Positions 1 through 55,685 of a stretch of 64,000 nt of DNA are shown in pieces. The notes below the pieces were generated by a model. That model saw only the letters and a list, made by a program, of their open reading frames with translations. It ran no database searches and was not told the DNA's origin. The position numbers and the translations under genes were made by a program. Numbering within the stretch: position 1 is the stretch's first letter; the number at the start of each line of letters is the position of its first letter. Where the stretch lies: positions 248,001 to 312,000 of the forward strand of contig JBHGNT010000008.1 of assembly GCA_043228905.1 (NCBI GenBank), read 5' to 3'. Source of the stretch: Azolla caroliniana. Taxonomy: Eukaryota; Plantae; Polypodiophyta.

Positions 1-3000
1 CTAAAATCCGATATCACATGGGCCAGGTATGAATATTTTAATTTACTCTCGGGCTCTTCTCAACTCCCTCCTCAAATTTGGTTATTTCTTCATGTCTCTG
101 AACGTGAGTTTCAAAATCCTTATTTTTTACTTCCATATGATAGCTAACATTTTAAGCTTAGATTCAAATGTTTGAACACTAAAATCCAATATCACATGGG
201 ACAGGTATGAACATTTTAATCTACTCTCGGGCTCTTCTCAACTCCCTCCTCAAATTTGGTAATTTCTTCATGTCTCTCGACCTGAGTTTCGAAAGCTTGA
301 TTTTTTAATTCCATATCATAAGTAGCATTGTTAGCTTCGATTCGCATGTTTGAACACAAAAATCCGATATCACATGGGCAAGGTATGAACATTTTAATTT
401 ACTCTCGGGCTCTTCTCAACTCCCTCCTCTAATTTGGTAATTTCTTCATATCTCTCGACCTGAGTTTCAAAAGCTTGATTTTCTAATTCCATATCATAGC
501 TAGCATTGTTAGCTTCGATTCGCATGTTTGAACACTCAAATCCGATATCACATGGGCCAGGTATGAACATTTTAATTTACTCTCGGGCTCTTCTCAACTC
601 CCTCCTCAAATTTGGTTATTTCTTCATGTCTCTGAACGTGAGTTTCAAAATCCTTATTTTTTACTTCCATATGATAGGTAACATTTTAAGCTTAGATTCA
701 AATGTTTGAACACTAAAATCCAATATCACATGGGACAGGTATGAACATTTTAATCTACTCTCGGGCTCTTCTCAACTCCCTCCTCAAATTTGGTAATTTC
801 TTCATGTCTCTCGACCTGAGTTTCGAAAGCTTGATTTTTTAATTCCATATCATAAGTAGCATTGTTAGCTTCGATTCGCATGTTTGAACACAAAAATCCG
901 ATATCACATGGGCAAGGTATGAACATTTTAATTTACTCTCGGGCTCTTCTCAACTCCCTCCTCTAATTTGGTAATTTCTTCATATCTCTCGACCTGAGTT
1001 TCAAAAGCTTGATTTTCTAATTCCATATCATAGCTAGCATTGTTAGCTTCGATTCGCATGTTTGAACACTCAAATCCGATATCACATGGGCCAGGTATGA
1101 ACATTTTAATTTACTCTCGGGCTCTTCTCAACTCCCTCCTCAAATTTGGTTATTTCTTCATGTCTCTGAACGTGAGTTTCAAAATCCTTATTTTTTACTT
1201 CCATATGATAGGTAACATTTTAAGCTTAGATTCAAATGTTTCAACACTAAAATCCAATATCACATGGGACAGGTATGAACATTTTAATCTACTCACGGGC
1301 TCTTCTCAACTCCCTCCTCAAATTTGGTAATTTCTTCATGTCTCTCGACCTGAGTTTCGAAAGCTTGATTTTTTAATTCCATATCATAAGTAGCATTGTT
1401 AGCTTCGATTCGCATGTTTGAACACAAAAATCCGATATCACATGGGCAAGGTATGAACATTTTAATTTACTCTCGGGCTCTTCTCAATCCCTCCTCTAAT
1501 TTGGTAATTTGTTCATGTCTCTTGACCTGAGTTTCAAAAGCTTCATTTTTTAATTCCATATCATAGCTAGCATTGTTAGCTTCGATTCGCCTGTTTGAAC
1601 ACTAAAATCCGATATTCAATGGGCCAGTTATGAACATTTCAATTTACTCTCGGCCTCTTCTCAATTCCTCCTCTAATTTGGTAATTTCTTCATGTCTCTC
1701 GACCTGAGTTTCAAAATCTTGATTTTTTAATTCCATATCATTGCTAGCATTGTTAGCTTCGATTCGCCTGTTTGAACACTAAAATCCGATCTCACATGGG
1801 CCAGTTATGAACATTTTAATTTACTCTTGGCCTCTTCTCTACTCCTTCCTCTAATTTGGTAATTTCTTCATGTCTTTCGACATGAGTTTCAAAAGATTAA
1901 TTTTTTAATTCCATATCATAGGTAGCATTGTTAGCTTCGATTCGCATGTTTGAACACTAAAATCCTATATCACATGGGCCAGGTATGAACATTTTAATTT
2001 ACTCATGCGCTCTTCTCAATCCCTCCTTTAATTTGGTAATTTCTTCATGTCTCTCGACATGAGTTTCAAAATCTTGATTTTTTAATTCCATATCATAGCT
2101 ATCGTTGTTAGCTTCCATTCGCATGTTTGAACACTAATATCCGATATCACATGGGCCAGGTATGAACATTTTAATTTACTCTCGGGCTCTTCTCAACTCC
2201 CTCCTCAAATTTGGTTATTTCTTCATGTCTCTGAACGTGAGTTTCAAAATCCTTATTTTTTACTTCCATATGATAGGTAACATTTTAAGCTTAGATTCAA
2301 ATGTTTGAACACTAAAATCCAATATCACATGGGACAGGTATGAACATTTTAATCTACTCTCGGGCTCTTCTCAACTCCCTCCTCAAATTTGGTAATTTCT
2401 TCATGTCTCTCGACCTGAGTTTCGAAAGCTTTATTTTTTAATTCCATATCATAAGTAGCATTGTTAGCTTCGATTCGCATGTTTGAACACAAAAATCCGA
2501 TATCACATGGGCAAGGTATGAACATTTTAATTTACTCTCGGGCTCTTCTCAACTCCCTCCTCTAATTTGGTAATTTCTTCATATCTCTCGACCTGAGTTT
2601 CAAAAGCTTGATTTTCTAATTCCATATCATAGCTAGCATTGTTAGCTTCGATTCGCATGTTTGAACACTAAAATCCGATATCACATGGGCCAGGTATGAA
2701 CATTTTAATTTACTCTCGGGCTCTTCTCAACTCCCTCCTCAAATTTGGTTATTTCTTCATGTCTCTGAACGTGAGTTTCAAAATCCTTATTTTTTACTTC
2801 CATATGATAGGTAACATTTTAAGCTTAGATTCAAATGTTTCAACACTAAAATCCAATATCACATGGGACAGGTATGAACATTTTAATCTACTCACGGGCT
2901 CTTCTCAACTCCCTCCTCAAATTTGGTAATTTCTTCATGTCTCTCGACCTGAGTTTCGAAAGCTTGATTTTTTAATTCCATATCATAAGTAGCATTGTTA

Positions 3001-6000
3001 GCTTCGATTCGCATGTTTGAACACAAAAATCCGATATCACATGGGCAAGGTATGAACATTTTAATTTACTCTCGGGCTCTTCTCAATCCCTCCTCTAATT
3101 TGGTAATTTGTTCATGTCTCTTGACCTGAGTTTCAAAAGCTTCATTTTTTAATTCCATATCATAGCTAGCATTGTTAGCTTCGATTCGCCTGTTTAAACA
3201 CTAAAATCCGATATTCAATGGGCCAGTTATGAACATTTCAATTTACTCTCGGCCTCTTCTCAATTCCTCCTCTAATTTGGTAATTTCTTCATGTCTCTCG
3301 ACCTGAGTTTCAAAATCTTGATTTTTTAATTCCATATCATTGCTAGCATTGTTAGCTTCGATTCGCCTGTTTGAACACTAAAATCCGATCTCACATGGGC
3401 CAGTTATGAACATTTTAATTTACTCTTGGCCTCTTCTCTACTCCTTCCTCTAATTTGGTAATTTCTTCATGTCTTTCGACATGAGTTTCAAAAGATTAAT
3501 TTTTTAATTCCATATCATAGGTAGCATTGTTAGCTTCGATTCGCATGTTTGAACACTAAAATCCTATATCACATGGGCCAGGTATGAACATTTTAATTTA
3601 CTCATGCGCTCTTCTCAATCCCTCCTTTAATTTGGTAATTTCTTCATGTCTCTCGACATGAGTTTCAAAATCTTGATTTTTTAACTCCATATCATAGCTA
3701 TCGTTGTTAGCTTCCATTCGCATGTTTGAACACTAATATCCGATATCACATGGGCCAGGTATGAACATTTTAATTTACTCTCGGGCTCTTCTCAACTCCC
3801 TCCTCAAATTTGGTTATTTCTTCATGTCTCTGAACGTGAGTTTCAAAATCCTTATTTTTTACTTCCATATGATAGGTAACATTTTAAGCTTAGATTCAAA
3901 TGTTTGAACACTAAAATCCAATATCACATGGGACAGGTATGAACATTTTAATCTACTCTCGGGCTCTTCTCAACTCCCTCCTCAAATTTGGTAATTTCTT
4001 CATGTCTCTCGACCTGAGTTTCGAAAGCTTTATTTTTTAATTCCATATCATAAGTAGCATTGTTAGCTTCGATTCGCATGTTTGAACACAAAAATCCGAT
4101 ATCACATGGGCAAGGTATGAACATTTTCATTTACTCTCGGGCTCTTCTCAACTCCCTCCTCTAATTTGGTAATTTCTTTATATCTCTCGACCTGAGTTTC
4201 CAAAGCTTGATTTTCTAATGCCATATCATAGCTAGCATTGTTAGCTTCGATTCGCATGTTTGAACACTCAAATCCAATATCACATGGGCCAGGTATGAAC
4301 ATTTTAATTTACTCTCGGGCTCTTCTCAACTCCCTCCTCTAATTTGGTAATTTCTTCATATCTCTCGACCTGAGTTTCCAGAGCTTGATTTTCTAATGCC
4401 ATATCATAGCTAGCATTGTTAGCTTCGATTTGCATGTTTGAACACTAAAATCCTATATCACATGGGCCAGGTATGAACATTTTAATTTACTCATGCGCTC
4501 TTCTCAATCCCTCCTTTAATTTGGTAATTTCTTCATGTCTCTCGACATGAGTTTCAAAATCTTGATTTTTTAATTCCATATCATAGCTATCGTTGTTAGC
4601 TTCCATTCGCATGTTTCAACACTAAAATCCGATATCACATGGGCCAGGTATGAATATTTTAATTTACTCTCGGGCTCTTCTCAACTCCCTCCTCAAATTT
4701 GGTTATTTCTTCATGTCTCTGAACGTGAGTTTCAAAATCCTTATTTTTTACTTCCATATGATAGCTAACATTTTAAGCTTAGATTCAAATGTTTGAACAC
4801 TAAAATCCAATATCACATGGGACAGGTATGAACATTTTAATCTACTCTCGGGCTCTTCTCAACTCCCTCCTCAAATTTGGTAATTTCTTCATGTCTCTCG
4901 ACCTGAGTTTCGAAAGCTTGATTTTTTAATTCCATATCATAAGTAGCATTGTTAGCTTCGATTGGCATGTTTGAACACAAAAATCCGACATCACATGGGC
5001 AAGGTATGAACATTTTAATTTACTCTCGGGCTCTTCTCAACTCCCTCCTCTAATTTGGTAATTTCTTCATATCTCTCGACCTGAGTTTCAAAAGCTTGAT
5101 TTTCTAATTCCATATCATAGCTAGCATTGTTAGCTTCGATTCGCATGTTTGAACACTCAAATCCGATATCACATGGGCCAGGTATGAACATTTTAATTTA
5201 CTCTCGGGCTCTTCTCAACTCCCTCCTCAAATTTGGTTATTTCTTCATGTCTCTGAACGTGAGTTTCAAAATCCTTATTTTTTACTTCCATATGATAGGT
5301 AACATTTTAAGCTTAGATTCAAATGTTTCAACACTAAAATCCAATATCACATGGGACAGGTATGAACATTTTAATCTACTCACGGGCTCTTCTCAACTCC
5401 CTCCTCAAATTTGGTAATTTCTTCATGTCTCTCGACCTGAGTTTCGAAAGCTTGATTTTTTAATTCCATATCATAAGTAGCATTGTTAGCTTCGATTCGC
5501 ATGTTTGAACACAAAAATCCGATATCACATGGGCAAGGTATGAACATTTTAATTTACTCTCGGGCTCTTCTCAACTCCCTCCTCTAATTTGCTAATTTCT
5601 TCATATCTCTCGACCTGAGTTTCCAAAGCTTGATTTTCTAATGCTATATCATAGCTAGCATTGTTAGCTTCGATTCGCATGTTTGAACACTCAAATCCAA
5701 TATCACATGGGCCAGGTATGAACATTTTAATTTACTCTCGGGCTCTTCTCAACTCCCTCCTCTAATTTGGTAATTTCTTCATATCTCTCGACCTGAGTTT
5801 CCAGAGCTTGATTTTCTAATGCCATATCATAGCTAGCATTGTTAGCTTCGATTCGCATGTTTGAACACTAAAATCCTATATCACATGGGCCAGGTATGAA
5901 CATTTTAATTTACTCATGCGCTCTTCTCAATCCCTCCTTTAATTTGGTAATTTCTTCATGTCTCTCGACATGAGTTTCAAAATCTTGATTTTTAATTCCA

Positions 6001-9000
6001 TATCATAGCTATCGTTGTTAGCTTCCATTCGCATGTTTGAACACTAAAATCCGATATCACATGGGCCAGGTATGAACATTTTAATTTACTCTCGGGCTCT
6101 TCTCAACTCCCTCCTCAAATTTGGTTATTTCTTCATGTCTCTGAACGTGAGTTTCAAAATCCTTATTTTTTACTTCCATATGATAGCTAACATTTTAAAC
6201 TTAGATTCAAATGTTTGAACACCAAAATCCAATATCACATGGGACAGGTATGAACATTTTAATCTACTCTCGGGCTCTTCTCAACTCCCTCCTCAAATTT
6301 GGTAATTTCTTCATGTCTCTCGACCTGAGTTTCGAAAGCTTGATTTTTTAATTCCATATCATAAGTAGCATTGTTAGCTTCGATTGGCATGTTTGAACAC
6401 AAAAATCCGATATCACATGGGCAAGGTATGAACATTTTAATTTACTCTCGGACTCTTCTCAACTCCCTCCTCTAATTTGGTAATTTCTTCATATCTCTCG
6501 ACCTGAGTTTCAAAAGCTTGATTTTCTAATTCCATATCATAGCTAGCATTGTTAGCTTCGATTCGCATGTTTGAACACTCAAATCCGATATCACATGGGC
6601 CAGGTATGAACATTTTAATTTTCTCTCGGGCTCTTCTCAACTCCCTCCTCAAATTTGGTTATTTCTTCATGTCTCTTGACGTGAGTTTCAAAAGCTTGAT
6701 TTTTGAATTCCATATCATAGGTAGCTTTGCTAGCTTCGATTCGCATGTTTGAACACAAAAATCCGATATCACATGCGCCAGGTATAAACATTTTAATTTA
6801 CTCTCGGGCTCTTCTCTACTCCCTCCTCTAATTTTGGAATTTCTTCATGTCTCTCGACCTGAGTTTCAAAATCTTGATTTTTGATCTGCATAACATAGCT
6901 CGCATTGTTAACTTCGGTTCGCATATTTGAACACTAAAATCCGATATCACATGGGCCAGGTATGAACATTTTAATTTACTCTCGGCCTCTTCTCTACTCC
7001 CCCCTCTAATTTGGTAATTTCTTCATGTCTCTCGACCTGAGTTTCAAAACCTTGATTTTTTAATTCCATATCATAGCTAACATTCTTAGCTTCGATTCTC
7101 ATGTTTGAACACTAAAATCCGATATCACATGGGCCAGGTATGAACATTTTAATTTACTCTCGGGCTCTTCTCAATCCCTCCTCTAATTTGGTAATTTGTT
7201 CATGTCTCTTGACCTGAGTTTCAAAAGCTTCATTTTTTAATTCCATATCATAGCTAGCATTGTTAGCTTCGATTCGCCTGTTTGAACACTAAAATCCGAT
7301 ATTCAATGGGCCAGTTATGAACATTTCAATTTACTCTCGGCCTCTTCTCAATTCCTCCTCTAATTTGGTAATTTCTTCATGTCTCTCGACCTGAGTTTCA
7401 AAATCTTGATTTTTTAATTCCATATCATTGCTAGCATTGTTAGCTTCGATTCGCCTGTTTGAACACTAAAATCCGATCTCACATGGGCCAGTTATGAACA
7501 TTTTAATTTACTCTTGGCCTCTTCTCTACTCCTTCCTCTAATTTGGTAATTTCTTCATGTCTTTCGACATGAGTTTCAAAAGATTAATTTTTTAATTCCA
7601 TATCATAGGTAGCATTGTTAGCTTCGATTCGCATGTTTGAACACTAAAATCCTATATCACATGGGCCAGGTATGAACATTTTAATTTACTCATGCGCTCT
7701 TCTCAATCCCTCCTTTAATTTGGTAATTTCTTCATGTCTCTCGACATGAGTTTCAAAATCTTGATTTTTTAATTCCATATCATAGCTATCGTTGTTAGCT
7801 TCCATTCGCATGTTTGAACACTAATATCCGATATCACATGGGCCAGGTATGAACATTTTAATTTACTCTCGGGCTCTTCTCAACTCCCTCCTCAAATTTG
7901 GTTATTTCTTCATGTCTCTGAACGTGAGTTTCAAAATCCTTATTTTTTACTTCCATATGATAGCTAACATTTTAAGCTTAGATTCAAATGTTTGAACACT
8001 AAAATCCAATATCACATGGGACAGGTATGAACATTTTAATCTACTCTCGGGCTCTTCTCAACTCCCTCCTCAAATTTGGTAATTTCTTCATGTCTCTCGA
8101 CCTGAGTTTCGAAAGCTTTATTTTTTAATTCCATATCATAAGTAGCATTGTTAGCTTCGATTCGTATGTTTGAACACAAAAATCCGATATCACATGGGCA
8201 AGGTATGAACATTTTCATTTACTCTCGGGCTCTTCTCAACTCCCTCCTCTAATTTGGTAATTTCTTCATATCTCTCGACCTGAGTTTCCAAAGCTTGATT
8301 TTCTAATGCCATATCATAGCTAGCATTGTTAGCTTCGATTCGCATGTTTGAACACTCAAATCCAATATCACATGGACCAGGTATGAACATTTTAATTTAC
8401 TCTCGGGCTCTTCTCAACTCCCTCCTCTAATTTGGTAATTTCTTCATATCTCTCGACCTGAGTTTCCAGAGCTTGATTTTCTAATGCCATATCATAGCTA
8501 GCATTGTTAGCTTCGATTCGCATGTTTGAACACTAAAATCCTATATCACATGGGCCAGGTATGAACATTTTAATTTACTCATGCGCTCTTCTCAATCCCT
8601 CCTTTAATTTGGTAATTTCTTCATGTCTCTCGACATGAGTTTCAAAATCTTGATTTTTTAATTCCATATCATAGCTATCGTTGTTAGCTTCCATTCGCAT
8701 GTTTCAACACTAAAATCCGATATCACATGGGCCAGGTATGAACATTTTAATTTACTCTCGGGCTCTTCTCAACTCCCTCCTCAAATTTGGTTATTTCTTC
8801 ATGTCTCTGAACGTGAGTTTCAAAATCCTTATTTTTTACTTTCATATGATAGCTAACATTTTAAGCTTAGATTCAAATGTTTGAACACTAAAATCCAATA
8901 TCACATGGGACAGGTATGAACATTTTAATCTACTCTCGGGCTCTTCTCAACTCCCTCCTCAAATTTGGTAATTTCTTCATGTCTCTCGACCTGAGTTTCG

Positions 9001-9416
9001 AAAGCTTGATTTTCTAATGCCATATCATAGCTAGCATTGTTAGCTTCGATTCGCATGTTTGAACACTCAAATCCAATATCACATGGGCCAGGTATGAACA
9101 TTTTAATTTACTCTCGGGCTCTTCTCAACTCCCTCCTCTAATTTGGTAATTTCTTCATATCTCTCGACCTGAGTTTCCAGAGCTTGATTTTCTAATGCCA
9201 TATCATAGCTAGCATTGTTAGCTTCGATTCGCATGTTTGAACACTAAAATTCTATATCACATGGGCCAGGTATGAAAATTTTAATTTACTCATGCGCTCT
9301 TCTCAATCCCTCCTTTAATTTGGTAATTTCTTCATGTCTCTCGACATGAGTTTCAAAATCTTGATTTTTTAATTCCATATCATAGCTATCGTTGTTAGCT
9401 TCCATTCGCATGTTTG
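1..9416 (+). repeat. 178-bp tandem satellite array, segment 1 (centromere-like)
   Basis: CTAAAATCC at 1 recurs at 179. The monomer core GTTTGAACACTAAAATCCGATATCACATGGGCCAGGTATGAACATTTTAATTTACTCTCGGGCTCTTCTC repeats head-to-tail. The same spurious ORF start recurs at 506 and 1040 (3x178). Centromeric function is inferred only from monomer size and organisation. Confidence 0.97.
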
Positions 9417-9487
9417 TGTCATAACTAGACTCGAACCCATAACCTTTTGTTACACGGGTCGAGACTTTACCATTAGGTTATGAGTTG
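9417..9487 (-). other. tRNA-like Pol III A-box/B-box cassette at the U3 terminus, antisense to the element (also 14678-14748 -, 50782-50852 +, 56080-56150 +)
   Basis: Minus strand reads A-box-like TAACCTAATGG (9480-9470) and B-box GGTTCGAGTC (9437-9428) at canonical tRNA positions 8-19 and 52-61. The stems are degenerate, so this is not a functional tRNA gene. Confidence 0.6.
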
Positions 9488-9539
9488 TAATTTGAAGGAT
9501 ATTATTTTCATTTAGGTTTTATTAGGAAATTGATGTATA

Positions 9540-9587
9540 TTCCAGATTTCTCTGGAACATTCTAGAAACTTCAGGAGTATTCCTGAA
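9540..9587. promoter_or_regulatory. Heat-shock element array of 10 in-phase alternating nTTCn/nGAAn units (also 14801-14848, 50682-50729, 55980-56027)
   Basis: TTC-ca-GAt-tt-cTC-tg-GAA-ca-TTC-ta-GAA-ac-TTC-ag-GAg-ta-TTC-ct-GAA. Seven of ten units are perfect, including four consecutive ones. Ends 5 bp before the TATA box. Confidence 0.8.
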
Positions 9588-9592
9588 GACAC

Positions 9593-9599
9593 TATAAAA
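9593..9599 (+). promoter_or_regulatory. TATA box of the LTR promoter
   Basis: TATAAAA, starting 33 nt upstream of the PBS-complementary sequence that is the predicted transcript 5' end. Confidence 0.75.
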
Positions 9600-9706
9600 G
9601 GAGGCGCAAGGCATTAGTTCGAACCAAATCAGTTCAACGCCAGTCTTAAGCCTTCTAACTACTGTTGTATATCTTCCGTCATATAATACATATATCTTTC
9701 GCATCA

Positions 9707-9710
<4 letters not shown>

Positions 9711-9746
<36 letters not shown>
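9711..9746 (+). repeat. (TC)n microsatellite within the LTR
   Basis: (TC)18 here, (TC)20 in the 3' LTR, and (GA)17 and (GA)16 in the two LTRs of copy 2. Confidence 0.95.
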
Positions 9747-9750
<4 letters not shown>

Positions 9751-9844
9751 ACTCATTCCTTCTCTCAAAGTTCGACACCTCTCATAGTACTAATCCTTCT
9801 TTTAGTACTAATTCCTTCTCTGCCTTAATAGAGTTCCTGACAGT

Positions 9845-9856
9845 TTGAACCGATTT
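9845..9856 (+). other. Primer-binding site, self-priming (Tf1-type)
   Basis: TTGAACCGATTT lies 2 nt after the LTR end and lacks the TGG complementary to tRNA CCA. It is the exact reverse complement of LTR sequence AAATCGGTTCAA (14887-14898; one mismatch in the 9626-9637 copy). Confidence 0.8.
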
Positions 9857-9931
9857 CTCCCTACTAGTCTCCCTCTTCCTTCTGTCTCTCTCCTTTCCTA
9901 CTAGTCTCTTATTTCCCTTTTCCTTCATCCC

Positions 9932-11101
9932 ATGGCCACCGTTAGCGCTGAAGAGTATCAATCCGTTTTCTCGGAATTTCAATGCTTGAAAGAGAAGTTT
10001 CATGCTTTGGAACAAGAAAATCAACGCTTGTTGGGGGATCTTCAGCAAATTTCCTTAGAAAAGCAGCAAACGCAACAACAGCATGGGGAACTTGCGTTAC
10101 GCGTGCAACAACTCGAAGCAACCATCGTAGCAATGCAACAACAAGGGCACGGAGCACAAGGGATTCATAAAGAACCCAAGATTGGCCTTCCCACGAAGTT
10201 CGATGGAACGCGATCGCAGTTTAGAGGGTTTCTTAACCAGGTACGGTTAGTTATTCAAATGCATCCGTCCCGATATCCCACCGATGCATCACGAGTCGGT
10301 TTAGTAGGCACGTTGTTAAATGGCTCAGCATTAGCATGGTTCGCTCCGCTACTAGAAAAGGAATCTCCAGTACTAAATAATTTTGAAGAATTCATAAGTG
10401 AGTTTAAAGCATGTTTTGGAGATACTGACAGCATAAGGACTGCAATCAACAAAATCCGGCGATTACGCCAAGGTGACCGTCCAGCCTCCGCATATGCTGC
10501 AGATTTCCGCCTACTCGCCGCCGATATCCCCTGGGATGATCAAGCATTGATGGAGCAGTTCCGCTATGGTCTACGCAACGATGTCAAGGATTTACTCTTG
10601 ACTTTCCCTGAAGAGCCAAAATCATTAACAGAAGCAATCAGTCGAGCGGTCAGATGTGACAACCGCCTCTTCGAGCGACGTTCGGAACGACAATTTCAGA
10701 TGCCGAGGGCAAGATCCGAGCCTACCTATGCCTCAATGGTAGCGAAACCTTTTCAAAGGGAGTCACATAATGCGCCTCCAGTAAGTACTCCAACTCCAAT
10801 GGAAATTGACACTACACGTCGTCGTGGGCCGCTATCGGAGGAGGAAAAGCAACGACGCCGAACAAACCGATTATGCCTTTATTGCGGTGGACCAGGGCAT
10901 ATCGCGATAAACTGTCCCCATAGACCAAGAAGGCAGGTAAACCAAGTCATTGTTAGTTCTGACTATACTAAACCCGAGTCTATGTCAGTAGGAATCTCTG
11001 ATAATCCTCATAGTCATAATAGTCCTAATAGTACTAATAGTCCGAATCTCGCAAACAAATTTGATGTCCTTAGCCAATTAGAAGAAGAGTTAAACGACTA
11101 A
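9932..11101 (+). CDS. gag: Gag polyprotein (N-terminal coiled coil, Ty3-type capsid, CCHC zinc knuckle), 389 aa
   Basis: ATG in CCCATGG context. Q/E/L-rich heptad N-terminus, KFDG capsid motif, LRQG major-homology-like region, and CLYCGGPGHIAINC (CX2CX4HX4C). Confidence 0.95.
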   Translation: MATVSAEEYQSVFSEFQCLKEKFHALEQENQRLLGDLQQISLEKQQTQQQHGELALRVQQLEATIVAMQQQGHGAQGIHKEPKIGLPTKFDGTRSQFRGFLNQVRLVIQMHPSRYPTDASRVGLVGTLLNGSALAWFAPLLEKESPVLNNFEEFISEFKACFGDTDSIRTAINKIRRLRQGDRPASAYAADFRLLAADIPWDDQALMEQFRYGLRNDVKDLLLTFPEEPKSLTEAISRAVRCDNRLFERRSERQFQMPRARSEPTYASMVAKPFQRESHNAPPVSTPTPMEIDTTRRRGPLSEEEKQRRRTNRLCLYCGGPGHIAINCPHRPRRQVNQVIVSSDYTKPESMSVGISDNPHSHNSPNSTNSPNLANKFDVLSQLEEELND

Positions 11102-11133
11102 GTCCAGCCAAAATAGGAGCCGTTTGGTTGGAC
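11089..11133 (+). promoter_or_regulatory. Programmed -1 ribosomal frameshift signal (slippery G_TTA_AAC plus stem-loop)
   Basis: The pol frame is -1 relative to gag and open from 11074. Heptamer at 11089-11095, 6-nt spacer, then an 11-bp stem GTCCAGCCAAA/TTTGGTTGGAC with one G-U pair. Confidence 0.8.
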
Positions 11134-14100
11134 AGCCCTAGATCTGTGCAGCCCATTAGTGGTTCCATTCCCTCTAAGCAAGTTAGTGATGTGTTCGTAG
11201 TCCAAGTAGCAGTTAGTACTAAAAGTACCCCTCCAGTACATACCTTAGCCCTTCTAGATTCCGGAGCTAATTCTTGCTTCATGGATAGGAATTTTGCCCG
11301 AGCTCATCAGATATCTCTCAGAAAGCTCCCATGTCCAGCCTCAGTAGTAGTCATTGATGGTCGTCCCATTGCTTCTGGTAATATCATAGAAGAGTCGGAA
11401 CCCGTTAATATTGTCCTAGATAACTTAACATGTGTAGTATCATTTAATATTATTAGTATTCCAGAACATCCCATAGTTTTAGGATTACCATGGTTCGAGT
11501 TACATGACCCAGACATAGATTGGAGGACAAGGGAAATCCGGTTGCGACAAACCCAAGGATCTACCCAGAAGGTTGCAACCATTTCGCTACGTCAGTTGCG
11601 TGAGGAAGGGCGCAAGGAGGAAATGTTTCTCTTTGCAATATCAGTACAACCCTCCAGCACCACCAAAGAGGAGTCCACCGTTCAACTCCCCGAGAAGTAT
11701 CGTCAGTATGCTGATGTGTTCGATAAAGTACAAGCCAACACACTTCCTCATCATCGGCCGTACGACTGCGCCATCGACTTACAACCGGGAAAAGAGCCGC
11801 CATGGGGGCCGATCTACAATTTGTCACCAACCGAGCTAGAAGTCCTTCGAGCCTATATAGAGGAGAATTTGGAGAACGGTTTCATTCAGCATTCGAAATC
11901 TCCAGCCGGCGCACCCATTTTCTTCGTCAAGAAAAAAGATGGCTCGCTTCGACTCGTTGTAGATTACCGTGGCTTGAATAAGGTCACAGTAAGAAATAGG
12001 TATGCTCTTCCCCTTATCTCAAGTCTTTTAGAACGGATCAACGGTGCCAGGTTCTTCACGAAGATCGACTTACGAGGAGCCTATAACCTCGTACGGATCC
12101 AACCAGGAGATGAATGGAAGACCGCGTTTCGCACCAGATATGGGCATTTCGAGTATACGGTCATGCCGTTCGGACTCACTAATGCGCCGGCAGTCTTCCA
12201 GCACATGGCGAATGATATATTTCGAGACCTCTTGGATGATTTTTTGATCATCTATTTGGATGATCTACTGGTTTATTCAAAGACCCAAGAAGAACATGAT
12301 TCTCATGTACTATTAGTACTAAAACGACTTCGAGAACATGGTCTGTATGCAAAGTTAGAGAAATGTAGTTTCGGGTGCAACCAAGTGGAGTTTCTCGGCT
12401 ATGTCATCTCCTCAGAAGGCATATCTATGGACCCAGCCAAGGTCAAAACGGTGATAGAATGGCACACTCCGCGTTCGGTGCGGGATGTGCAATGCTTCCT
12501 AGGCTTTGCAAATTTCTACCGGAAGTTCATACAAAATTACTCAAAAATTGTGCTACCTCTCACACAGCTCACCAGGAAGGGACAATCATTCATTTGGTCT
12601 AAAGAGACGGACATGGCTTTCGAGAGTCTTAAGAAGGCGTTTACATCAGCTCCAATTTTAGGTCATGTGGATCCGGAAAAACCATTCATTATCGAAGCTG
12701 ATGCATCGGATTTCGCATTGGGGAGCATTCTGTCACAACAGGGTAACGACGAGAAGCTACATCCTGTGGCTTTCCACTCCCGTAAGTTTGACGCCGCCGA
12801 AATCAACTACGAAATTCATGATAAAGAGCTATTAGCAATAGTTGATTCTTTTATGCAATGGAGGCATTTCCTGGAGGGATCTCCTCATCAGGTCACTGTA
12901 TTCAGTGACCACAAGAACCTTGCCTACTTTCAAGATGCTCGTGTACTGAATCGACGTCAAGCTCGGTGGGCCCATTTCCTCACACGCTTCGACTTCAAAA
13001 TTACATATCGTCCGGGGAAGCACCAAGGGAAGGCAGATGCATTATCACGGCGTTCGTATCTAACACCACGTCCCGGTGAGCCAGCTTTCGATAACCAGAA
13101 GCAAGTAATCTTGGGTCCAGCACGACTGCAAGCAGCACAGATCTTTGACATGCCCGTGGATTCCGACATTACCAATACTATACGTGAGGACTTGAAGACT
13201 GACGCTTTCGCCCAAGCTATACTAGCACAAATTGACCCCTCTCGAGCGTCATGTTCACAATCACAATCACCAGGTACGGATTATCGGCAATTCAAATACT
13301 GTGATGGATTACTCTTCTTTAAAGAACTTTTGTATGTTCCTAATGGTTCTTGCCGCCTTCGAGTAGTACAAAACTGCCATGACACATATACAGCAGGACA
13401 TTTTGGTAGTACTAAAACATTAGATTTAGTACAACGATCATTCTGGTGGCCCCGTATGCGACAATTTGTCGAAGATTTTGTTCGGACTTGCGATACATGC
13501 TGCAGAGCGAAAATGCCAAGACATCATCCATATGGTTTATTAGAACCATTACCAATTCCAAGCAAGCCATGGCAATCCATTGCTCTTGACTTCATTACAG
13601 ATCTTCCAGTCTCTAAGGGATTCAGTGCGATTCTCACAGTGGTGGATCGATATACGAAGATGGCTCATTTCTTACCATGTACTAAAGAAATATCTAGTGA
13701 AGACACCGCCGAAATTGTCATGCGGGAAGTATGTCGGCATCATGGACTCCCTGATAATATCATCAGCGATCGTGGACCCCAGTTTGTGTCAAAATTCTGG
13801 AAGCACCTTTTTAAAATGCTCAAGGTCACTTGTAACCTCTCCTCCGGCTACCACCCACAAACCGACGGTCAAGCCGAACGAACAAATCAAACACTGGAGC
13901 AGTATCTGCGGTGCTTTCTCAACTATCATCAGAATGACTGGGCAGATATTCTTCCGTTCGCCGAATTTGCCTATAATAACGCTATCCACGCATCGACTAA
14001 AGTCACGCCATTCTACGCTTATACGGGATATCATCCCCGGTGGTGTGTCCTTGAAACCCCAGAAGTGTCCACAAATCCTTGCGCGGAGGATCGTTTGGAG

Positions 14101-14685
14101 CGGTTACGCAAGATACAAGCGGATTTATCTACTCAACTCCAACAAGCTCAACAATCACACAAGGACTACGCAGATCGTCATCGACTTCCATCCAGTTTTA
14201 ACATTGGAGATCGGGTGTGGCTGCTACGACGACACATCAAGACTACTCGCCCATGTGAGAAGTTGGATTATCGACGATTAGGTCCTTTCCGTATTATCGG
14301 GAAGATTAATGATGTCGCTTTTCGTCTCGAGCTACCTCCGCAACTTCGGATACACCCGGTGTTTCATAGTTCTCTCCTCGAACCCTATCACGAGAGCACT
14401 ATCCCAGGACGTACTATACAACCTCCACCTCCTATCGAGCTCGAAGATGGACCTGAGTATGAGGTCGCTGCCATCCTCGATTCCAAGATTGTTCGCAACA
14501 AGCTCTACTATCTAGTCGATTGGCTAGGATATAGTCCCAGCGAGCGTACTTGGGAACCGATCGAGAATGTGACCAATGCTCGTGCTCTTCTAGAAGACTT
14601 CCATCGACGATATCCCGAGAAACCGGGTCCTCAATCCAAAACGACTCGTGAAACTCGTCGTTTTAAAGGGGGGATAGTGTCATAA
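11128..14685 (+). CDS. pol: Pol polyprotein: aspartic protease, reverse transcriptase, RNase H, integrase, chromodomain (frame open from 11074; probably made as a Gag-Pol fusion)
   Basis: LLDSGA (PR). VMPFGL and YLDD (RT). EADASD (RH). HX6H...CDTC, LDF, SDRG and GQAERTN (IN). LGPF (GPY/F motif). EYEVAAIL...YLVDWLGY...TWEP (chromodomain). Confidence 0.97.
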   Translation: MDSPRSVQPISGSIPSKQVSDVFVVQVAVSTKSTPPVHTLALLDSGANSCFMDRNFARAHQISLRKLPCPASVVVIDGRPIASGNIIEESEPVNIVLDNLTCVVSFNIISIPEHPIVLGLPWFELHDPDIDWRTREIRLRQTQGSTQKVATISLRQLREEGRKEEMFLFAISVQPSSTTKEESTVQLPEKYRQYADVFDKVQANTLPHHRPYDCAIDLQPGKEPPWGPIYNLSPTELEVLRAYIEENLENGFIQHSKSPAGAPIFFVKKKDGSLRLVVDYRGLNKVTVRNRYALPLISSLLERINGARFFTKIDLRGAYNLVRIQPGDEWKTAFRTRYGHFEYTVMPFGLTNAPAVFQHMANDIFRDLLDDFLIIYLDDLLVYSKTQEEHDSHVLLVLKRLREHGLYAKLEKCSFGCNQVEFLGYVISSEGISMDPAKVKTVIEWHTPRSVRDVQCFLGFANFYRKFIQNYSKIVLPLTQLTRKGQSFIWSKETDMAFESLKKAFTSAPILGHVDPEKPFIIEADASDFALGSILSQQGNDEKLHPVAFHSRKFDAAEINYEIHDKELLAIVDSFMQWRHFLEGSPHQVTVFSDHKNLAYFQDARVLNRRQARWAHFLTRFDFKITYRPGKHQGKADALSRRSYLTPRPGEPAFDNQKQVILGPARLQAAQIFDMPVDSDITNTIREDLKTDAFAQAILAQIDPSRASCSQSQSPGTDYRQFKYCDGLLFFKELLYVPNGSCRLRVVQNCHDTYTAGHFGSTKTLDLVQRSFWWPRMRQFVEDFVRTCDTCCRAKMPRHHPYGLLEPLPIPSKPWQSIALDFITDLPVSKGFSAILTVVDRYTKMAHFLPCTKEISSEDTAEIVMREVCRHHGLPDNIISDRGPQFVSKFWKHLFKMLKVTCNLSSGYHPQTDGQAERTNQTLEQYLRCFLNYHQNDWADILPFAEFAYNNAIHASTKVTPFYAYTGYHPRWCVLETPEVSTNPCAEDRLERLRKIQADLSTQLQQAQQSHKDYADRHRLPSSFNIGDRVWLLRRHIKTTRPCEKLDYRRLGPFRIIGKINDVAFRLELPPQLRIHPVFHSSLLEPYHESTIPGRTIQPPPPIELEDGPEYEVAAILDSKIVRNKLYYLVDWLGYSPSERTWEPIENVTNARALLEDFHRRYPEKPGPQSKTTRETRRFKGGIVS
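14665..14677 (+). other. Polypurine tract
   Basis: AAAGGGGGGATAG immediately precedes TGTCA of the 3' LTR. Confidence 0.9.
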
Positions 14686-14967
14686 CTAGACTCGAACCCA
14701 TAACCTTTTGTTACACGGGTCGAGACTTTACCATTAGGTTATGAGTTGTAATTTGAAGGATATTATTTTCATTTAGGTTTTATTAGGAAATTGATGTATA
14801 TTCCAGATTTCTCTGGAACATTCTAGAAACTTCAGGAGTATTCCTGAAGACACTATAAAAGGAGGCGCAAGGCATTAGTTCGAACCAAATCGGTTCAACG
14901 CCAGTCTTAAGCCTTCTAACTACTGTTGTATATCTTCCGTCATATAATACATATATCTTTCGCATCA

Positions 14968-15015
<48 letters not shown>

Positions 15016-15148
15016 ACTCATTCCTTCTCTCAAAGTTCGACACCTCTCATAGTACTAATCCTTCTCTGTCTTAGTACTATTCCCCAACAATAGTACTAAT
15101 CCTTCTTTTAGTACTAATTCCTTCTCTGCCTTAATAGAGTTCCTGACA
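14678..15148 (+). repeat. 3' LTR of copy 1 (471 bp)
   Basis: TGTCA...TGACA, followed by TSD GTTTG. Confidence 0.96.
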
Positions 15149-18100
15149 GTTTGAACACTAAAATCCGATATCACATGGGCCAGGTATGAACATTTTAATT
15201 TACTCTCGGGCTCTTCTCAACTCCCTCCTCAAATTTGGTTATTTCTTCATGTCTCTGAACGTGAGTTTCAAAATCCTTATTTTTTACTTCCATATGATAG
15301 CTAACATTTTAAGCTTAGATTCAAATGTTTGAACACTAAAATCCAATATCACATGGGACAGGTATGAACATTTTAATCTACTCTCGGGCTCTTCTCAACT
15401 CCCTCCTCAAATTTGGTAATTTCTTCATGTCTCTCGACCTGAGTTTCGAAAGCTTGATTTTCTAATTCCATATCATAGCTATCGTTGTTAGCTTCCATTC
15501 GCATGTTTGAACACTAAAATCCGATATCACATGGGCCAGGTATGAACATTTTAATTTACTCTCGGGCTCTTCTCAACTCCCTCCTCAAATTTGGTTATTT
15601 CTTCATGTCTCTGAACGTGAGTTTCAAAATCCTTGATTTTCTAATTCCATATCATAGCTAGCATTGTTAGCTTCGATTCGCATGTTTGAACACTCAAATC
15701 CGATATCACATGGGCCAGGTATGAACATTTTAATTTTCTCTCGGGCTCTTCTCAACTCCCTCCTCAAATTTGGTTATTTTTTCATGTCTCTTGACGTGAG
15801 TTTCAAAAGCTTGATTTTTGAATTCCATATCATAGGTAGCTTTGCTAGCTTCGATTCGCATGTTTGAACACAAAAATCCGATATCACATGCGCCAGGTAT
15901 AAACATTTTAATTTACTCTCGGGCTCTTCTCTACTCCCTCCTCTAATTTTGGAATTTCTTCATGTCTCTCGACCTGAGTTTCAAAATCTTGATTTTTGAT
16001 CTGCATAACATAGCTCGCATTGTTAGCTTCGGTTCGCATATTTGAACACTAAAATCCGATATCACATGGGCCAGGTATGAACATTTTAATTTACTCTAGG
16101 CCTCTTCTCTACTCCCTCCTCTAATTTGGTAATTTTTTCATGTCTCTCGACCTGAGTTTCAAAACCTTGATTTTTTAATTCGATATCATAGCTAGACTTG
16201 TTAGCTTCGATTTGTATGTTTGAACACTAAAATCCGATATCACATGGGCCAGGTATGAACATTTTAATTTACTCTCGGGCTCTTCTCTACTCCCTCCTCT
16301 AATTTTGGAATTTCTTCATGTCTCTCGACCTGAGTTTGAAAATCTTGATTTTTTAATTCCATATTATAGCTAGCATTGTTAGCTTCGATTCGCATGTTTG
16401 AACACTAAAATCCTATATCACATGGGCCAGGTATGAACATTTTAATTTACTCACGCGCTCTTCTCAACTCCCTCCTCTAATTTGGTAATTTCTTCATGTC
16501 TCTCGACCTGAGTTTCAAAACCTTGATTTTTTAGTTCTATATCATAGCTAGACTTTGTTAACTTCGATTTGTATGTTTGAACACTAAAATCCGATATCAT
16601 ATGGGCCAGGTATGAACATTTTAATTTACTCTCGGGCTCTTCTCTACTCCCTCCTCTAATTTTGGAATTTCTTCATGTCTCTCGACCTGAGTTTGAAAAT
16701 CTTGATTTTTTAATTCCATATTATAGCTAGCATTGTTAGCTTCGATTCGCATGTTTGAACACTAAAATCCTATATCACATGGGCCAGGTATGAACATTTT
16801 AATTTACTCACGCGCTCTTCTCAACTCCCTCCTCAAATTTGGTAATTTCTTCATGTCTCTCGACTTGAGTTTGAAAATCTTGATTTTTTAATTCTATATC
16901 ATAGCTAGCCTTGTTAGCTTCGATTCTTATGTTTGAACACTAAAATCTGATATCACATGGGCCAGGTATGAACATTTTAATTTACTCTCGGGCTCTTCTC
17001 AACTCCCTTCTCAAATTTGGTTATTTCTTCATGTCTCTCGACGTGAGTTTCGAAAGCTTGATTTTTTAATTCCATATCATAGGTAGCTTTGCTAGCTTCG
17101 ATTCGCATGTTTAAACACTAAAATCCGATATCACATGGGCCAGGTATGAACATTTGAATTTACTCTCGGGCTCTTCTCAACTCCCTCCTCAAATTTGGTT
17201 ATTTCTTCATGTCTCTCAACGTGAGTTTCAAAATCCTTATTTTTTACTTCCATATGATAGCTAACATTGTAAGCTTCGATTCAAATGTTTGAACACTAAA
17301 ATCCAATATCACATGGGACAGGTATGAACATTTTAATTTACTCTCGGGCTCTTCTCAACTCCCTCCTCAAATTTGGTAATTTCTTCATGTCTCTCGACCT
17401 GAGTTTCAAAAGCTTCATTTTTTAATTCCATATCATAGGTAGCATTGTTAGCTTCGATTCGCATGTTTGAACACAAAAATCCGATATCACATGGGCCAGG
17501 TATGAACATTTTAATTTACTCTCGGCCTCTTCTCTACTCCCTCTTCTAATTTGGTAATTTCTTCATGTCTCTCGACCTGAGTTTCAAAACCTTGATTTTT
17601 TAATTGGATATCATAGCTAGACTTGTTAGCTTCGATTCGTATGTTTGAACACTAAAATCCGATATCACATGGGCCAGGTATGAACATTTTAATTTACTCT
17701 CGGGCTCTTCTCTACTCCCTCCTCTAATTTTGGAATTTCTTCATGTCTCTCGACCTGAGTTTGAAAATCTTGATTTTTTAATTCCATATTATAGCTAGCA
17801 TTGTTAGCTTCGATTCGCATGTTTGAACACTAAAATCCTATATCACATGGGCCAGGTATGAACATTTTAATTTACTCACGCGCTCCTCTAAACTCCCTCC
17901 TCAAATTTGGTAATTTCTTCATGTCTCTCGACCTGAGTTTGAAAATCTTGATTTTTTATTCCATATCATAGGTAGGTTTGTTAGCTTCCATTCGCATGTT
18001 TAAACACTCAAATCCGATATCACATTGGCCAAGTCTAAACATTTTAATTTACTCTCGGGCTCTTCTCTACTCCCTCCTCTAATTTGGGAATTTCTTCATG

Positions 18101-21100
18101 TCTCTCGACCTGAGTTTGAAAATCTTGATTTTTTAATTCTATATCATAGCTAGCCTTGTTAGCTTCGATTCTTATGTTTGAACACTAAAATCTGATATCA
18201 CATGGGCCAGGTATGAACATTTTAATTTACTCTCGGGCTCTTCTCAACTCCCTTCTCAAATTTGGTTATTTCCTCATGTCTCTCGACGTGAGTTTCGAAA
18301 GCTTGATTTTTTAATTCCATATCATAGGCAGCTTTGCTAGCTTCGATTCGCATGTTTAAACACTAAAATCCGATATCACATGGGCTAGGTATGAACATTT
18401 GAATTTACTCTCGGGCTCTTCTCAACTCCCTCCTCAAATTTGGTTATTTCTTCATGTCTCTCAACGTGAGTTTCAAAATCCTTATTTTTTACTTCCATAT
18501 GATAGCTAACATTGTAAGCTTCGATTCGCATGTTTGAACACAAAAATCCGATATCACATGGGCCAGGTATGAACATTTTAATTTACTCTCGGCCTCTTCT
18601 CTACTCCCTCCTCTAATTTGGTAATTTCTTCATGTCTCTCGACCTGAGTTTCGAAACCTTGATTTTTTAATTGGATATCATAGCTAGACTTGTTAGCTTC
18701 GATTCGTATGTTTGAACACTAAAATCCGATATCACATGGGCCAGGTATGAACATTTTAATTTACTCTCGGGCTCTTCTCTACTCCCTCCTCTAATTTTGG
18801 AATTTCTTCATGTCTCTCGACCTGAGTTTGAAAATCTTGATTTTTTAATTCCATATTATAGCTAGCATTGTTAGCTTCGATTCGCATGTTTGAACACTAA
18901 AATCCTATATCACATGGGCCAGGTATGAACATTTTAATTTACTCACGCGCTCCTCTAAACTCCCTCCTCAAATTTGGTAATTTCTTCATGTCTCTCGACC
19001 TGAGTTTGAAAATCTTGATTTTTTATTCCATATCATAGGTAGGTTTGTTAGCTTCCATTCGCATGTTTAAACACTCAAATCCGATATCACATTGGCCAAG
19101 TCTAAACATTTTAATTTACTCTCGGGCTCTTCTCTACTCCCTCCTCTAATTTGGGAATTTCTTCATGTCTCTCGACCTGAGTTTGAAAATCTTGATTTTT
19201 TAATTCTATATCATAGCTAGCCTTGTTAGCTTCGATTCTTATGTTTGAACACAAAAATCTGATATCACATGGGCCAGGTATGAACATTTTAATTTACTCT
19301 CGGGCTCTTGTCAACTCCCTTCTCAAATTTCGTTATTTCCTCATGTCTCTCGACGTGAGTTTCGAAAGCTTGATTTTTTAATTCCATATCATAGGTAGCT
19401 TTGCTAGCTTCGATTCGCATGTTTAAACACTAAAATCCGATATCACATGGGCCAGGTATGAACATTTGAATTTACTCTCGGGCTCTTCTCAACTCCCTCC
19501 TCAAATTTGGTTATTTCTTCATGTCTCTCAACGTGAGTTTCAAAATCCTTATTTTTTACTTCCATATGATAGCTAACATTGTAAGCTTCGATTCAAATGT
19601 TTGAACACTAAAATCCAATATCACATGGGACAGGTATGAACATTTTAATTTACTCTCGGGCTCTTCTCAACTCCCTCCTCAAATTTGGTAATTTCTTCAT
19701 GTCTCTCGACCTGAGTTTCAAAAGCTTCATTTTTTAATTCCATATCATAGGTAGCATTGTTAGCTTCGATTCGCATGTTTGAACACAAAAATCCGATATC
19801 ACATGGGCCAGGTATGAACATTTTAATTTACTCTCGGCCTCTTCTCTACTCCCTCCTCTAATTTGGTAATTTCTTCATGTCTCTCGACCTGAGTTTCAAA
19901 ACCTTGATTTTTTAATAGGATATCATAGCTAGACTTGTTAGCTTCGATTCGTATGTTTGAACACTAAAATCCGATATCACATGGGCCAGGTATGAACATT
20001 TTAATTTACTCTCGGGCTCTTCTCTACTCCCTCCTCTAATTTTGGAATTTCTTCATGTCTCTCGACCTGAGTTTGAAAATCTTGATTTTTTAATTCCATA
20101 TTATAGCTAGCATTGTTAGCTTCGATTCGCATGTTTGAACACTAAAATCCTATATCACATGGGCCAGGTATGAACATTTTAATTTACTCACGCGCTCCTC
20201 TAAACTCCCTCCTCAAATTTGGTAATTTCTTCATGTCTCTCGACCTGAGTTTGAAAATCTTGATTTTTTATTCCATATCATAGGTAGGTTTGTTAGCTTC
20301 CATTCGCATGTTTAAACACTCAAATCCGATATCACATTGGCCAAGTCTAAACATTTTAATTTACTCTCGGGCTCTTCTCTACTCCCTCCTCTAATTTGGG
20401 AATTTCTTCATGTCTCTCGACCTGAGTTTCAAAACCTAGATTTTTTAATTCTATATCATAGCTAGCCTTGTTAGCTTCAATTCTTATGTTTGAACACTAA
20501 AATCTGATATCACATGGGCCAGGTATGAACATTTTAATTTACTCTCGGGCTCTTCTCAACTCCCTCCTCAAATTTGGTTATTTCTTCATGTCTCTCGACG
20601 TGAGTTTCAAAATCTTGATTTTTTAATTCCATATCATAGCTATCGTTGTTAGCTTCCATTCGCATGTTTGAACACTAAAATCCGATATCACATGGGCCAG
20701 GTATGAACATTTTAATTTACTCTCGGGCTCTTCTCAACTCCCTCCTCAAATTTGGTTATTTCTTCATGTCTCTCGACCTGAGTTTCAGAACCTTGATTTT
20801 TTAATTCCATATCATAGGTACCTTTGTTAGCTTCGATTCGCATATTTGAACACTAAAATCCGATATCACATGGGCCAGGTATGAACATTTTAATTTACTC
20901 TCGGGCTCCTCTCTACTCCCTCCTCTAATTTGGGAATGTCTTCATGTCTCTCGACCTGAGATTCAAAATCTTGATTTTTTAATTCCATATCATGGGTACC
21001 TTTGTTAGCTTCGATTCTCATATTTGAACACTAAAATCCGATATAACATGGGCCAGGTATGAACATTTTAATTTACTCTCGGGCTCTTCTCAACTACCTC

Positions 21101-27100: not shown

Positions 27101-27599
27101 CTCTCGACCTGAGTTTAAAAATCTTGATTTTTTATTCCATATCATAGGTAGCTTTGTTAGCTTCCATTCCCATGTTTAAACACTCAAATCCGATATCACA
27201 TTGGCCAAGTCTAAACATTTTAATTTACTCTCGGGCTCTTCTCTACTCCCTCCTCTAATTTGGCAATTTCTTCATGTCTCTCGACCTGAGTTTCAAAACC
27301 TAGATTTTTTAATTCCATATCATAGCTAGCCTTGTTAGCTTCAATTCAAATGTTTGAACACTAAAATCGGATATCACATGGGCCAGGTATGACCATTTGA
27401 ATTTACTCTCGGCCTCTTCTCTACTCCCTCCTCTAATTTGGTAATTTCTTCATGTCTCTCGACCTGAGTTTCAAAACCTTGATTTTTTAATTACATATCA
27501 TAGCTAGCCTTGTTAGCTTCGATTCGTATGTTTGAACACTAAAATCCGATATCACGTGGGCCAGGTATGAACATTTTAATTTACTCTCGGGCTCTTCTC

Positions 27600-29900: not shown

Positions 29901-30199
29901 CTGAGTTTCAAAATCTTGATTTTCTAATTCCATATCATAGGTACCTGTGTTAGCTTCGATTCTCATATTTGAACACTAAAATCCGATATCACATGGGCCT
30001 GGTATGACCATTTTAATTTACTCTCGGCCTCTTCTCTACTCCCTCCTCTAATTTGGTAACTTCTTCATGTCTCTCGACCTGAGTTTCAAAACCTTGATTT
30101 TTTAATTACATATCATAGCTAGCCTTGTTAGCTTCGATTCGTATGTTTGAACACTAAAATCCGATATCACGTGGGCCAGGTATGAACATTTTAATTTAC

Positions 30200-50200: not shown

Positions 50201-50387
50201 TTCCATTACATAGCTCGCATTGTTAGCTTCGATTCGCATATTTGAACACTAAAATCCGATATCACATGGGCCAGGTCTAAACATTTTAATTTACTCTCGG
50301 GCTCTTCTCTACTCCCTCCTCTAATTTGGGAATTTCTTCATGTCTCTCAACCTGAGTTACAAAATCTTGATTTTTTAATTCCATATC

Positions 50388-50520
50388 TGTCAGGAACTCT
50401 ATTAAGGCAGAGAAGGAATTAGTACTAAAAGAAGGATTAGTACTATTGTTGGGGAATAGTACTAAGACAGAGAAGGATTAGTACTATGAGAGGTGTCGAA
50501 CTTTGAGAGAAGGAATGAGT

Positions 50521-50562
<42 letters not shown>

Positions 50563-54402: not shown

Positions 54403-54428
54403 CCAAACGGCTCCTATTTTGGCTGGAC

Positions 54429-55598: not shown

Positions 55599-55673
55599 GG
55601 GATGAAGGAAAAGGGAAATAAGAGACTAGTAGGAAAGGAGAGAGACAGAAGGAAGAGGGAGACTAGTAGGGAG

Positions 55674-55685
55674 AAATCGGTTCAA
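55674..55685 (-). other. Self-priming PBS of copy 2
   Basis: AAATCGGTTCAA on + is the perfect 12/12 inverted partner of TTGAACCGATTT at 55930-55941 in the 5' LTR. Confidence 0.8.

Follow-up and report, generated by a model that had tools for sequence, protein, structure and literature searches.

The LTRs of an autonomous chromovirus in Azolla caroliniana begin with a 71-base antisense cassette that carries the A and B boxes of a tRNA-type Pol III promoter. That the cassette is real and conserved across a clade of related elements was confirmed; its function is proposed from sequence. In the preferred reading, which is drawn by analogy with yeast tRNA-gene barriers and is given a probability of about 0.45, the boxes would bind TFIIIC and the Pol III complex and thus serve as a portable boundary that separates the enhancer and TATA box of the element's own Pol II promoter from host chromatin.

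The window, i.e. the whole stretch of 64,000 nucleotides that was analysed, contains two copies of the element, E1 and E2, within a satellite array that looks centromere-like (Table 1). The two LTRs differ by one substitution in E1 and by none in E2, the internal sequences of E1 and E2 differ by two substitutions in 4835 bases, and both are very young copies of one element. This element is 5.7 kb long and has open gag and pol frames, which overlap by 28 bases in the -1 frame (11074-11101), with pol lacking a start codon at its beginning. The satellite around the elements (1-9416, 15149-50387, 56151-64000) is arranged in higher-order blocks: variant units recur about 5.7 kb apart at 30-44 kb, and 753-bp blocks are found at 28-30 kb. 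Within the 178-bp unit, the insertion sites of E1 and E2 are 34-35 bases apart.

Table 1 Features of the window (cassettes and promoter signals, elements, satellite)
Feature	Position	Strand	Remark
Antisense tRNA-like cassette, E1 5' LTR, start of U3	9417..9487	-	tRNA positions 72 to 1
Second cassette, E1 3' LTR	14678..14748	-	box model, covariance model
Third cassette, E2 3' LTR	50782..50852	+	box model, covariance model
Fourth cassette, E2 5' LTR	56080..56150	+	box model, covariance model
A box (T8 to G19)	9470..9480	-	11.6 bits
B box (G53 to C61)	9428..9436	-	15.2 bits, 0/1000 shuffles; 34 bases after G19
CAA at -7 to -5 of the tRNA-like unit	9492..9494	-	as upstream of plant tRNA genes
AT-rich TATA-like stretch, -37 to -30	9517..9524	-	possible TFIIIB site
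178-bp satellite array	1..64000	.	fills the window around E1 and E2
Element E1, Ty3/gypsy	9417-15148	+	target site duplication GTTTG at 9412-9416 and 15149-15153
Element E2, copy of E1	50388..56150	-	target site duplication ATATC
E1 5' LTR (TG...CA)	9417..9842	+	426 bp; 41-base deletion in the 3' part relative to the other three LTRs
E1 3' LTR	14678..15148	+	LTR comparison, flanking target site duplication
gag ORF (stop to stop)	9905..11101	+	capsid and zinc knuckle
pol ORF	11074..14685	+	protease, RT, RNase H, integrase, SH3, chromodomain
Polypurine tract (PPT)	14665..14674	+	upstream of E1 3' LTR
TATA box of the Pol II promoter	9593..9599	+	U3 of E1 5' LTR
GAA/TTC array, four alternating units	9555..9572	+	enhancer part of U3
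Self-primer stretch, complementary to the PBS	9626..9637	+	co-varies with the PBS in L004, L007, L008, L010
PBS complementary to own LTR, not to a tRNA 3' end	9845..9856	+	12-base complement

The tRNA-like cassette of the LTR

The cassette is identical in all four LTRs. From the outer end inwards, the LTR consists of the TG end, the B box and the A box (both pointing outward), the AT-rich stretch, a variable enhancer, the TATA box and the self-primer. The initial annotation had fitted the terminal 71 bases to tRNA numbering on the plus strand at 56080-56150, and all letters named there are present: T8 A9, A14, G18 G19 and A21, a D-stem ACCT/AAGT with three of four pairs, GTG at 34-36, AGGTT at 44-48, and G53 T54 T55 C56 G57 A58 T60 C61. 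The placement of position 72 on the terminal LTR base is also found in the window but is incidental, the LTRs of relatives ending at +76 to +96. The description of decayed acceptor and anticodon stems beside persisting boxes was borne out, with 2/7 and 1/5 pairs in these stems (D-stem 3/4; T-stem 4/5, two of them G-T) and 22.4 bits for the boxes.

This score was obtained with an A+B box model trained on 40 of 44 ARAGORN tRNAs from two unrelated viral records, four having lacked a GG or T-loop call. The training set consists of tRNA genes of archaeal-virus and cyanophage origin, and a plant set would be preferable; the D- and T-loop invariants are common to eukaryotic tRNAs as well. With an in-sample training median of 23.0 bits, the four cassettes are the top four sites in 64 kb, and the next site reaches 16.4 bits. 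The comparison with dinucleotide-shuffled LTRs that the initial annotation had proposed came out in its favour, since none of 1000 shuffles reached 22.4 bits (mean -0.6, maximum 13.4). The A-B spacing is 34 bases, compared with 33-36 in short-arm training tRNAs. The layout is that of a type 2 Pol III promoter, an A box followed by a B box at tRNA spacing. Plant tRNA genes have a CAA and an AT-rich stretch upstream (PMC3082873), signals that are weaker outside flowering plants (PMC13578239; here and below, PMC numbers refer to the available portions of the papers). Both occur in the window and in one related locus (L005), within a U3 that is AT-rich anyway; the CAA lies at -7 only in these two and is elsewhere or absent in other families.

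Interpretation as a tRNA gene was rejected, given the decayed cloverleaf and the outcome of tRNA searches. ARAGORN reported no tRNA in the window; among the matches listed, the cassette first appears at ps60, which is a noise setting. A tRNA match at E<=10 was likewise missing from the Rfam results. A covariance model built from 30 training tRNAs found exactly the four cassettes in the window, weakly (12.6-13.4 bits, E 0.3-0.4), against 32-56 bits for its own training tRNAs. In tRNAs, the anticodon is preceded by U33 and followed by a purine at 37. Here, C33 and T37 stand on either side of GTG, which therefore does not reveal an isotype. A blastn search of the cassette against phages gave short chance matches in seven records, none annotated as tRNA. 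A box pattern derived from the window matched two viral tRNAs (Arg, Gln), and one derived from L005 matched 109 stretches, of which 77 of the 80 checked were tRNAs, mostly Trp (36), His (24) and Arg (13); the pattern is therefore typical of tRNAs but names no donor. The cassette of the window folds with a z-score of about -2 to -2.6 on both strands, and a conserved alternative hairpin was rejected, the fold not being common to the deeply separated families. A sigma-70 scan was empty, which is irrelevant to the cassette, and a marY1 search found nothing.

Related elements and conservation of the boxes

Relatives were collected by aligning the integrase-chromodomain end, which gave 79 metagenome and 9 viral loci. 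The LTR start (PPT followed by TG) was called automatically in 41 of these 88 loci, with some calls in distant loci possibly wrong, and the 47 loci without a call were left out; that of L013 was placed by eye. Scans of genome contigs and viral contigs yielded no close relatives, the best segment over the full query having at most 54% and 42%, respectively. The 29 genome-contig loci entered the whole-locus scan only, apart from six in the tree, and are not part of the LTR-start count. Ty3/gypsy integrase-like contigs were also seen in prokaryotic assemblies (L093-L121), many of them probably eukaryotic contamination.

All seven loci with 62-79% protein identity to the element carry the cassette in antisense within the first 140 LTR bases, each with 0/200 shuffles reaching its score (L003 15.5, L004 15.5, L005 11.8, L006 21.6, L007 20.7, L011 18.5 and L017 15.2 bits); all seven come from one series of contig ids, and L003 and L004 represent one family. 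The covariance model finds L006, L011 and L007 at the same place with 16.5-20.5 bits. None of the other 34 loci with a called LTR start exceeds 7.8 bits; this value belongs to L009 (B box alone, 3/1000 shuffles) and is followed by 3.8 bits. The sense strand of the LTR starts never exceeds 3.2 bits. Outside the U3 cassettes and the linker of L004 (see below), 18 sites of at least 12 bits occur in 614,748 bases on both strands, one of them above 14.2 bits. A 20-bit A+B site near 5633 on the plus strand of L025, a distant and probably fungal element, is not at the called LTR start. Contigs found with the LTR start, under six organism labels, include sister families with different first ~10 bases and the same boxes among the matches listed.

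In a tree of 50 rows, the window and the cassette rows form one side of a branch with 97/94 support, L004 standing for L003. L009 is placed just outside this branch and L008, L010 and L013 further off. The latter three are high-coverage sister families without a strong cassette (-0.8, -7.8 and 2.0 bits, respectively).

The alignment of related LTRs, likewise proposed in the initial annotation, showed the boxes to be conserved. Among four deep families (window, L004, L006, L007), pairwise identity is 0.82 at the 15 box positions (74/90) and 0.46 elsewhere (138/300), a contrast matched by 3 of 20000 random position sets and inflated by the anchoring of the rows on the boxes. Independent of this anchoring is the spacing from G19 to G53. 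It is 34 in the window and, across the seven loci, 34, 34, 34, 35, 34, 37 and 34. Identity drops to 0.31-0.36 in the acceptor and anticodon arms. Positions 44-48, which are not classed as promoter, are as conserved as the boxes (0.87, 26/30), and T stems retain 4/5 pairs in six of the seven rows. The distance from the B box to the LTR end varies between loci from 11 to 36 bases; indels lie beside the cassette and rarely within it. In L007, a strong A box is kept with a D-stem of only 1/4 pairs, and a T4 run follows directly after position 72. The CpG of the B box is kept in three of the four deep families, the fourth having a tRNA-compatible A57, and no cassette fold is shared across them. The high-coverage contigs L004, L006 and L007 have an intact B box, and the low-coverage, frameshifted copies L005, L011 and L017 a damaged one, a pattern that selection on transposing elements would produce.

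The remainder of the LTR has diverged more. In blastn comparisons among the window, L004 and L007, only the self-primer block aligns, together with the GAA/TTC array in the case of L004. The middle of U3 is family-specific, with the GAA/TTC array in the window and L004 and other repeats in L007 and L008. The array, which is heat-shock-element-like, is longer in L004 and absent in L007, L008, L009 and L010; it suggests heat induction and the swapping of enhancers between families.

A second antisense tRNA-like stretch was observed in the L004-type subfamily (proteins P0006, P0007 and P0008), whose protease-RT linker is 20-27 residues longer than that of the window. It lies in frame within this linker (L004, 1000-1070 and 6323-6393, minus strand). 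With 17-18 bits in the covariance model and 15.1 and 9.7 bits in the box model, these scores are near background, so that a second capture in the same clade is tentative only.

Self-priming and probable placement in the Tcn1 clade

The PBS is complementary to a stretch of the element's own LTR about 33 bases behind the TATA box. This 12-base complement and its co-variation in four relatives indicate that the element self-primes, and the antisense cassette is therefore not the site of a minus-strand primer. A primer function of the cassette was rejected on this ground, as was a role as a second PBS, positions 73-76 being missing and a PPT being present. The sole substitution between the E1 LTRs (9631) falls into the self-primer of the 5' LTR and creates one mismatch with the PBS.

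The domain order is that of Ty3/gypsy elements with a C-terminal chromodomain, as in Tcn1 chromoviruses, and the chromodomain has Y, W and Y, as judged by eye, at the positions of the aromatic cage. The Tcn1 clade is described as having an aromatic-cage (group I) chromodomain, as predicted to self-prime, and as confined to mosses and club-mosses (PMC6317226). Named RT-RH matches of the element are fungal and vertebrate at 48-63%, compared with 43-49% for Asteraceae; the tree contained no reference Tcn1 elements. Self-priming, the aromatic-cage chromodomain and motifs in common with the Selaginella element SM-Tcn1 fit membership in the Tcn1 clade, as far as sequence features allow this assignment.

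SM-Tcn1 and the moss elements resemble the present element in their overlapping gag-pol ORFs, group I chromodomain and self-priming (PMC2864245, PMC6317226). Comparison by eye with supplement S3 of PMC2864245 places shared motifs at the pol start, the self-primer and the LTR-PBS junction. In the same comparison, no antisense A/B boxes were seen in the SM-Tcn1 LTR, and a 13-base LTR/PBS complement was seen at the same place as here; PMC2864245 itself reports no evidence of self-priming for SM-Tcn1. A Pol III promoter is not mentioned in the available text of the two Tcn1 papers ('polymerase III' occurs 0 times in that of PMC2864245). As L008, L010, L013 and SM-Tcn1 are without a strong cassette, Tcn1 elements evidently spread without it.

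Explanations for the retained boxes and relation to known systems

An origin of the cassette from a tRNA or SINE head, combined with selective retention of its boxes, is highly probable. The capture of such a head had been put forward in the initial annotation and is supported by a score above all shuffles and by the conservation in relatives. The additional tie to satellite heterochromatin proved not to be specific: the cassette is clade-wide, and its carriers among the relatives show no connection with satellites. A tRNA gene or SINE head would have been captured in U3, perhaps in a single event in which the ancestor of the clade acquired the cassette or strengthened it, and selection on the boxes would act through retrotransposition. 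Judged from the boxes, binding of TFIIIC is likely. TFIIIC would cover the outer ~70 bp of the LTR, and TFIIIB could be placed on the AT-rich stretch between cassette and enhancer, with the TATA box of the Pol II promoter following some 70-100 bp downstream. The benefit, which is the least secure step, would be a barrier to spreading heterochromatin or to read-in transcription. Such a barrier would suit an element that is presumably guided to heterochromatin by its chromodomain.

The boundary reading is based on the location of the cassette between host DNA and enhancer and on the indifference of fission-yeast tDNA barriers to orientation. The fission yeast barrier needs both TFIIIC and Pol III and is orientation-independent (PMC2040200). 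In budding yeast, Pol III complexes block intergenic Pol II transcription (PMC4228148), and the moss element RLG1 has a chromodomain and occupies heterochromatic islands (PMC7466625); further context is provided by PMC11899658 and PMC4370569. The barrier evidence found is from yeasts, and the search returned no plant test of a tDNA barrier. A complex bound in the 3' LTR would stand head-on to the genomic Pol II transcript, which would be a cost.

If the cassette were instead a working Pol III gene with the RNA as its point, the transcript from the 3' LTR would be ~110 nt long and would read antisense through U3, the PPT and the last part of pol, and that from the 5' LTR would be 130-150 nt long and extend into host DNA. 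The seven strong rows have no T4 run between +1 and the B box, the first T4 follows 107 bases after +1 in both 3' LTRs (129 or 150 in the 5' LTRs), the plant-type upstream CAA and AT-rich stretch are present in the window, and foamy viruses do make Pol III RNAs from their LTRs (PMC3993851). T4-free stretches are, however, common (244 of 306 windows in the window's LTR), the terminator position is not conserved (+61 to +115, with +72 in L007 and none within reach in L004), a conserved fold is lacking, and the 5' product would change with each insertion site, which makes this explanation unlikely. A neutral relic, i.e. a tRNA or SINE head that landed in an ancestral U3 and is merely decaying, would agree with the loss of most stem pairs, with the weak or absent boxes of sister families (B box only in L009; L013, L008) and with the 'not a few' Repbase LTRs that hold tRNA-like pieces according to Kojima (PMC10886601). 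It is quite unlikely in view of the persistence of boxes and spacing between families with unalignable LTR middles, the position of indels beside the cassette, and the retained CpG or A57 of the B box.

The boxes of older LTRs might also recruit TFIIIB and serve as a landing pad, new own or foreign copies integrating at the Pol III start and building up islands. The self-priming element Tj1, which is related to Tf1, inserts immediately upstream of tRNA genes (PMC4600332), and a single contig (run X1; 14811) joins LTR position ~134 to the LTR start of a sister family. The nested insertion at 14811 lies ~63 bases upstream of the cassette +1. Against such targeting, which is improbable, neither of the two insertion sites in the window is near an A+B site (both are in satellite, none above 7.9 bits), no LTR terminus occurs around +1 among the loose ends listed, and all four cassettes are free of upstream insertions. 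In HIV-1, a tRNA-complementary stretch of U3/R aids strand transfer, and Ty1 and Ty3 have extended tRNA pairing. By this precedent, the genomic RNA might pair with the D and T loops of a host tRNA behind the PPT and thereby aid packaging, strand transfer or the plus-strand start. Such a role at the RNA level would also explain the conserved positions 44-48 and the kept T stems, and 44-48 join with 53-61 in a conserved block that is almost unbroken; it is nevertheless very improbable, because the element self-primes and has a normal PPT, and because positions 49-52 and 62-72, which a continuous duplex needs, differ between families (identity 0.40 and 0.31). Mere chance is barely credible. The LTR does contain two more GTTCGA words, the satellite has a near-B-box of 9.1 bits by itself, and the covariance score alone is weak, but the absence of comparable shuffles, the sparse background and the same place and strand in all seven clade loci refute a chance resemblance unless these loci are not independent.

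Among known systems, Helenus/TRIMp3 is similar in having tRNA-derived sequence in both LTRs, with conserved A/B boxes and a mostly non-functional cloverleaf, in its 5-bp target site duplications (plant and fungal families) and in its proposed origin from a SINE insertion into the LTR (PMC10886601). It differs in being non-autonomous, 311-1263 bp long and tRNA-primed (PMC10886601), whereas the present element is autonomous, 5.7 kb long and self-priming. In the Selaginella and wasp examples of the supplement, the tRNA of Helenus is in sense and is the element's own promoter (PMC10886601); here, U3 opens with the boxes in antisense and a Pol II TATA promoter is kept. Kojima considered it unlikely that such LTR sequence would be shared with autonomous elements for long (PMC10886601). 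Cassandra and Ajax TRIMs also carry the promoter of a small-RNA gene in the LTR but are 5S-derived and non-autonomous, and the Cassandra promoter makes the element's own transcript (PMC10886601). Cassandra, to which the initial annotation had pointed, is thus a valid parallel as regards a small-RNA promoter in the LTR, with the tRNA-derived Helenus being nearer. The Pol III miRNA cassettes of foamy viruses share A/B units in the LTR of an autonomous element with an additional Pol II promoter and differ in yielding defined hairpin RNAs with terminators (PMC3993851), in contrast to the outward-pointing, tRNA-spaced relic found here, which has no conserved fold or terminator. The tDNA and B-box barriers of fission yeast centromeres resemble the proposed mode in their use of TFIIIC and Pol III in any orientation but are tRNA genes at fixed places in a yeast genome, with no mobile element involved (PMC2040200). 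The literature searched, which did not extend to subscription papers such as the first descriptions of moss chromoviruses, gave no report of autonomous plant chromoviruses whose LTR carries A/B boxes in antisense. With the present cassette, LTR promoters of tRNA origin are known not only from non-autonomous TRIMs but also, in reversed orientation, from autonomous elements.

Taken further, and rather tentatively, a heterochromatin-seeking clade of chromoviruses may have turned a captured tRNA gene into an LTR module that sets a TFIIIC/Pol III boundary at both ends and leaves the element expressible in satellite. If this is true, new copies would seed plant centromere-type arrays with Pol III sites. 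tDNA-type insulation is known from yeasts and animals; if the boxes are bound, a mobile element would add an example from plants, and a family with many copies would distribute TFIIIC sites over heterochromatin and satellite arrays. For the question of how chromoviruses stay active in silent chromatin, point-mutable boxes at the edge of the LTR make one answer directly testable.
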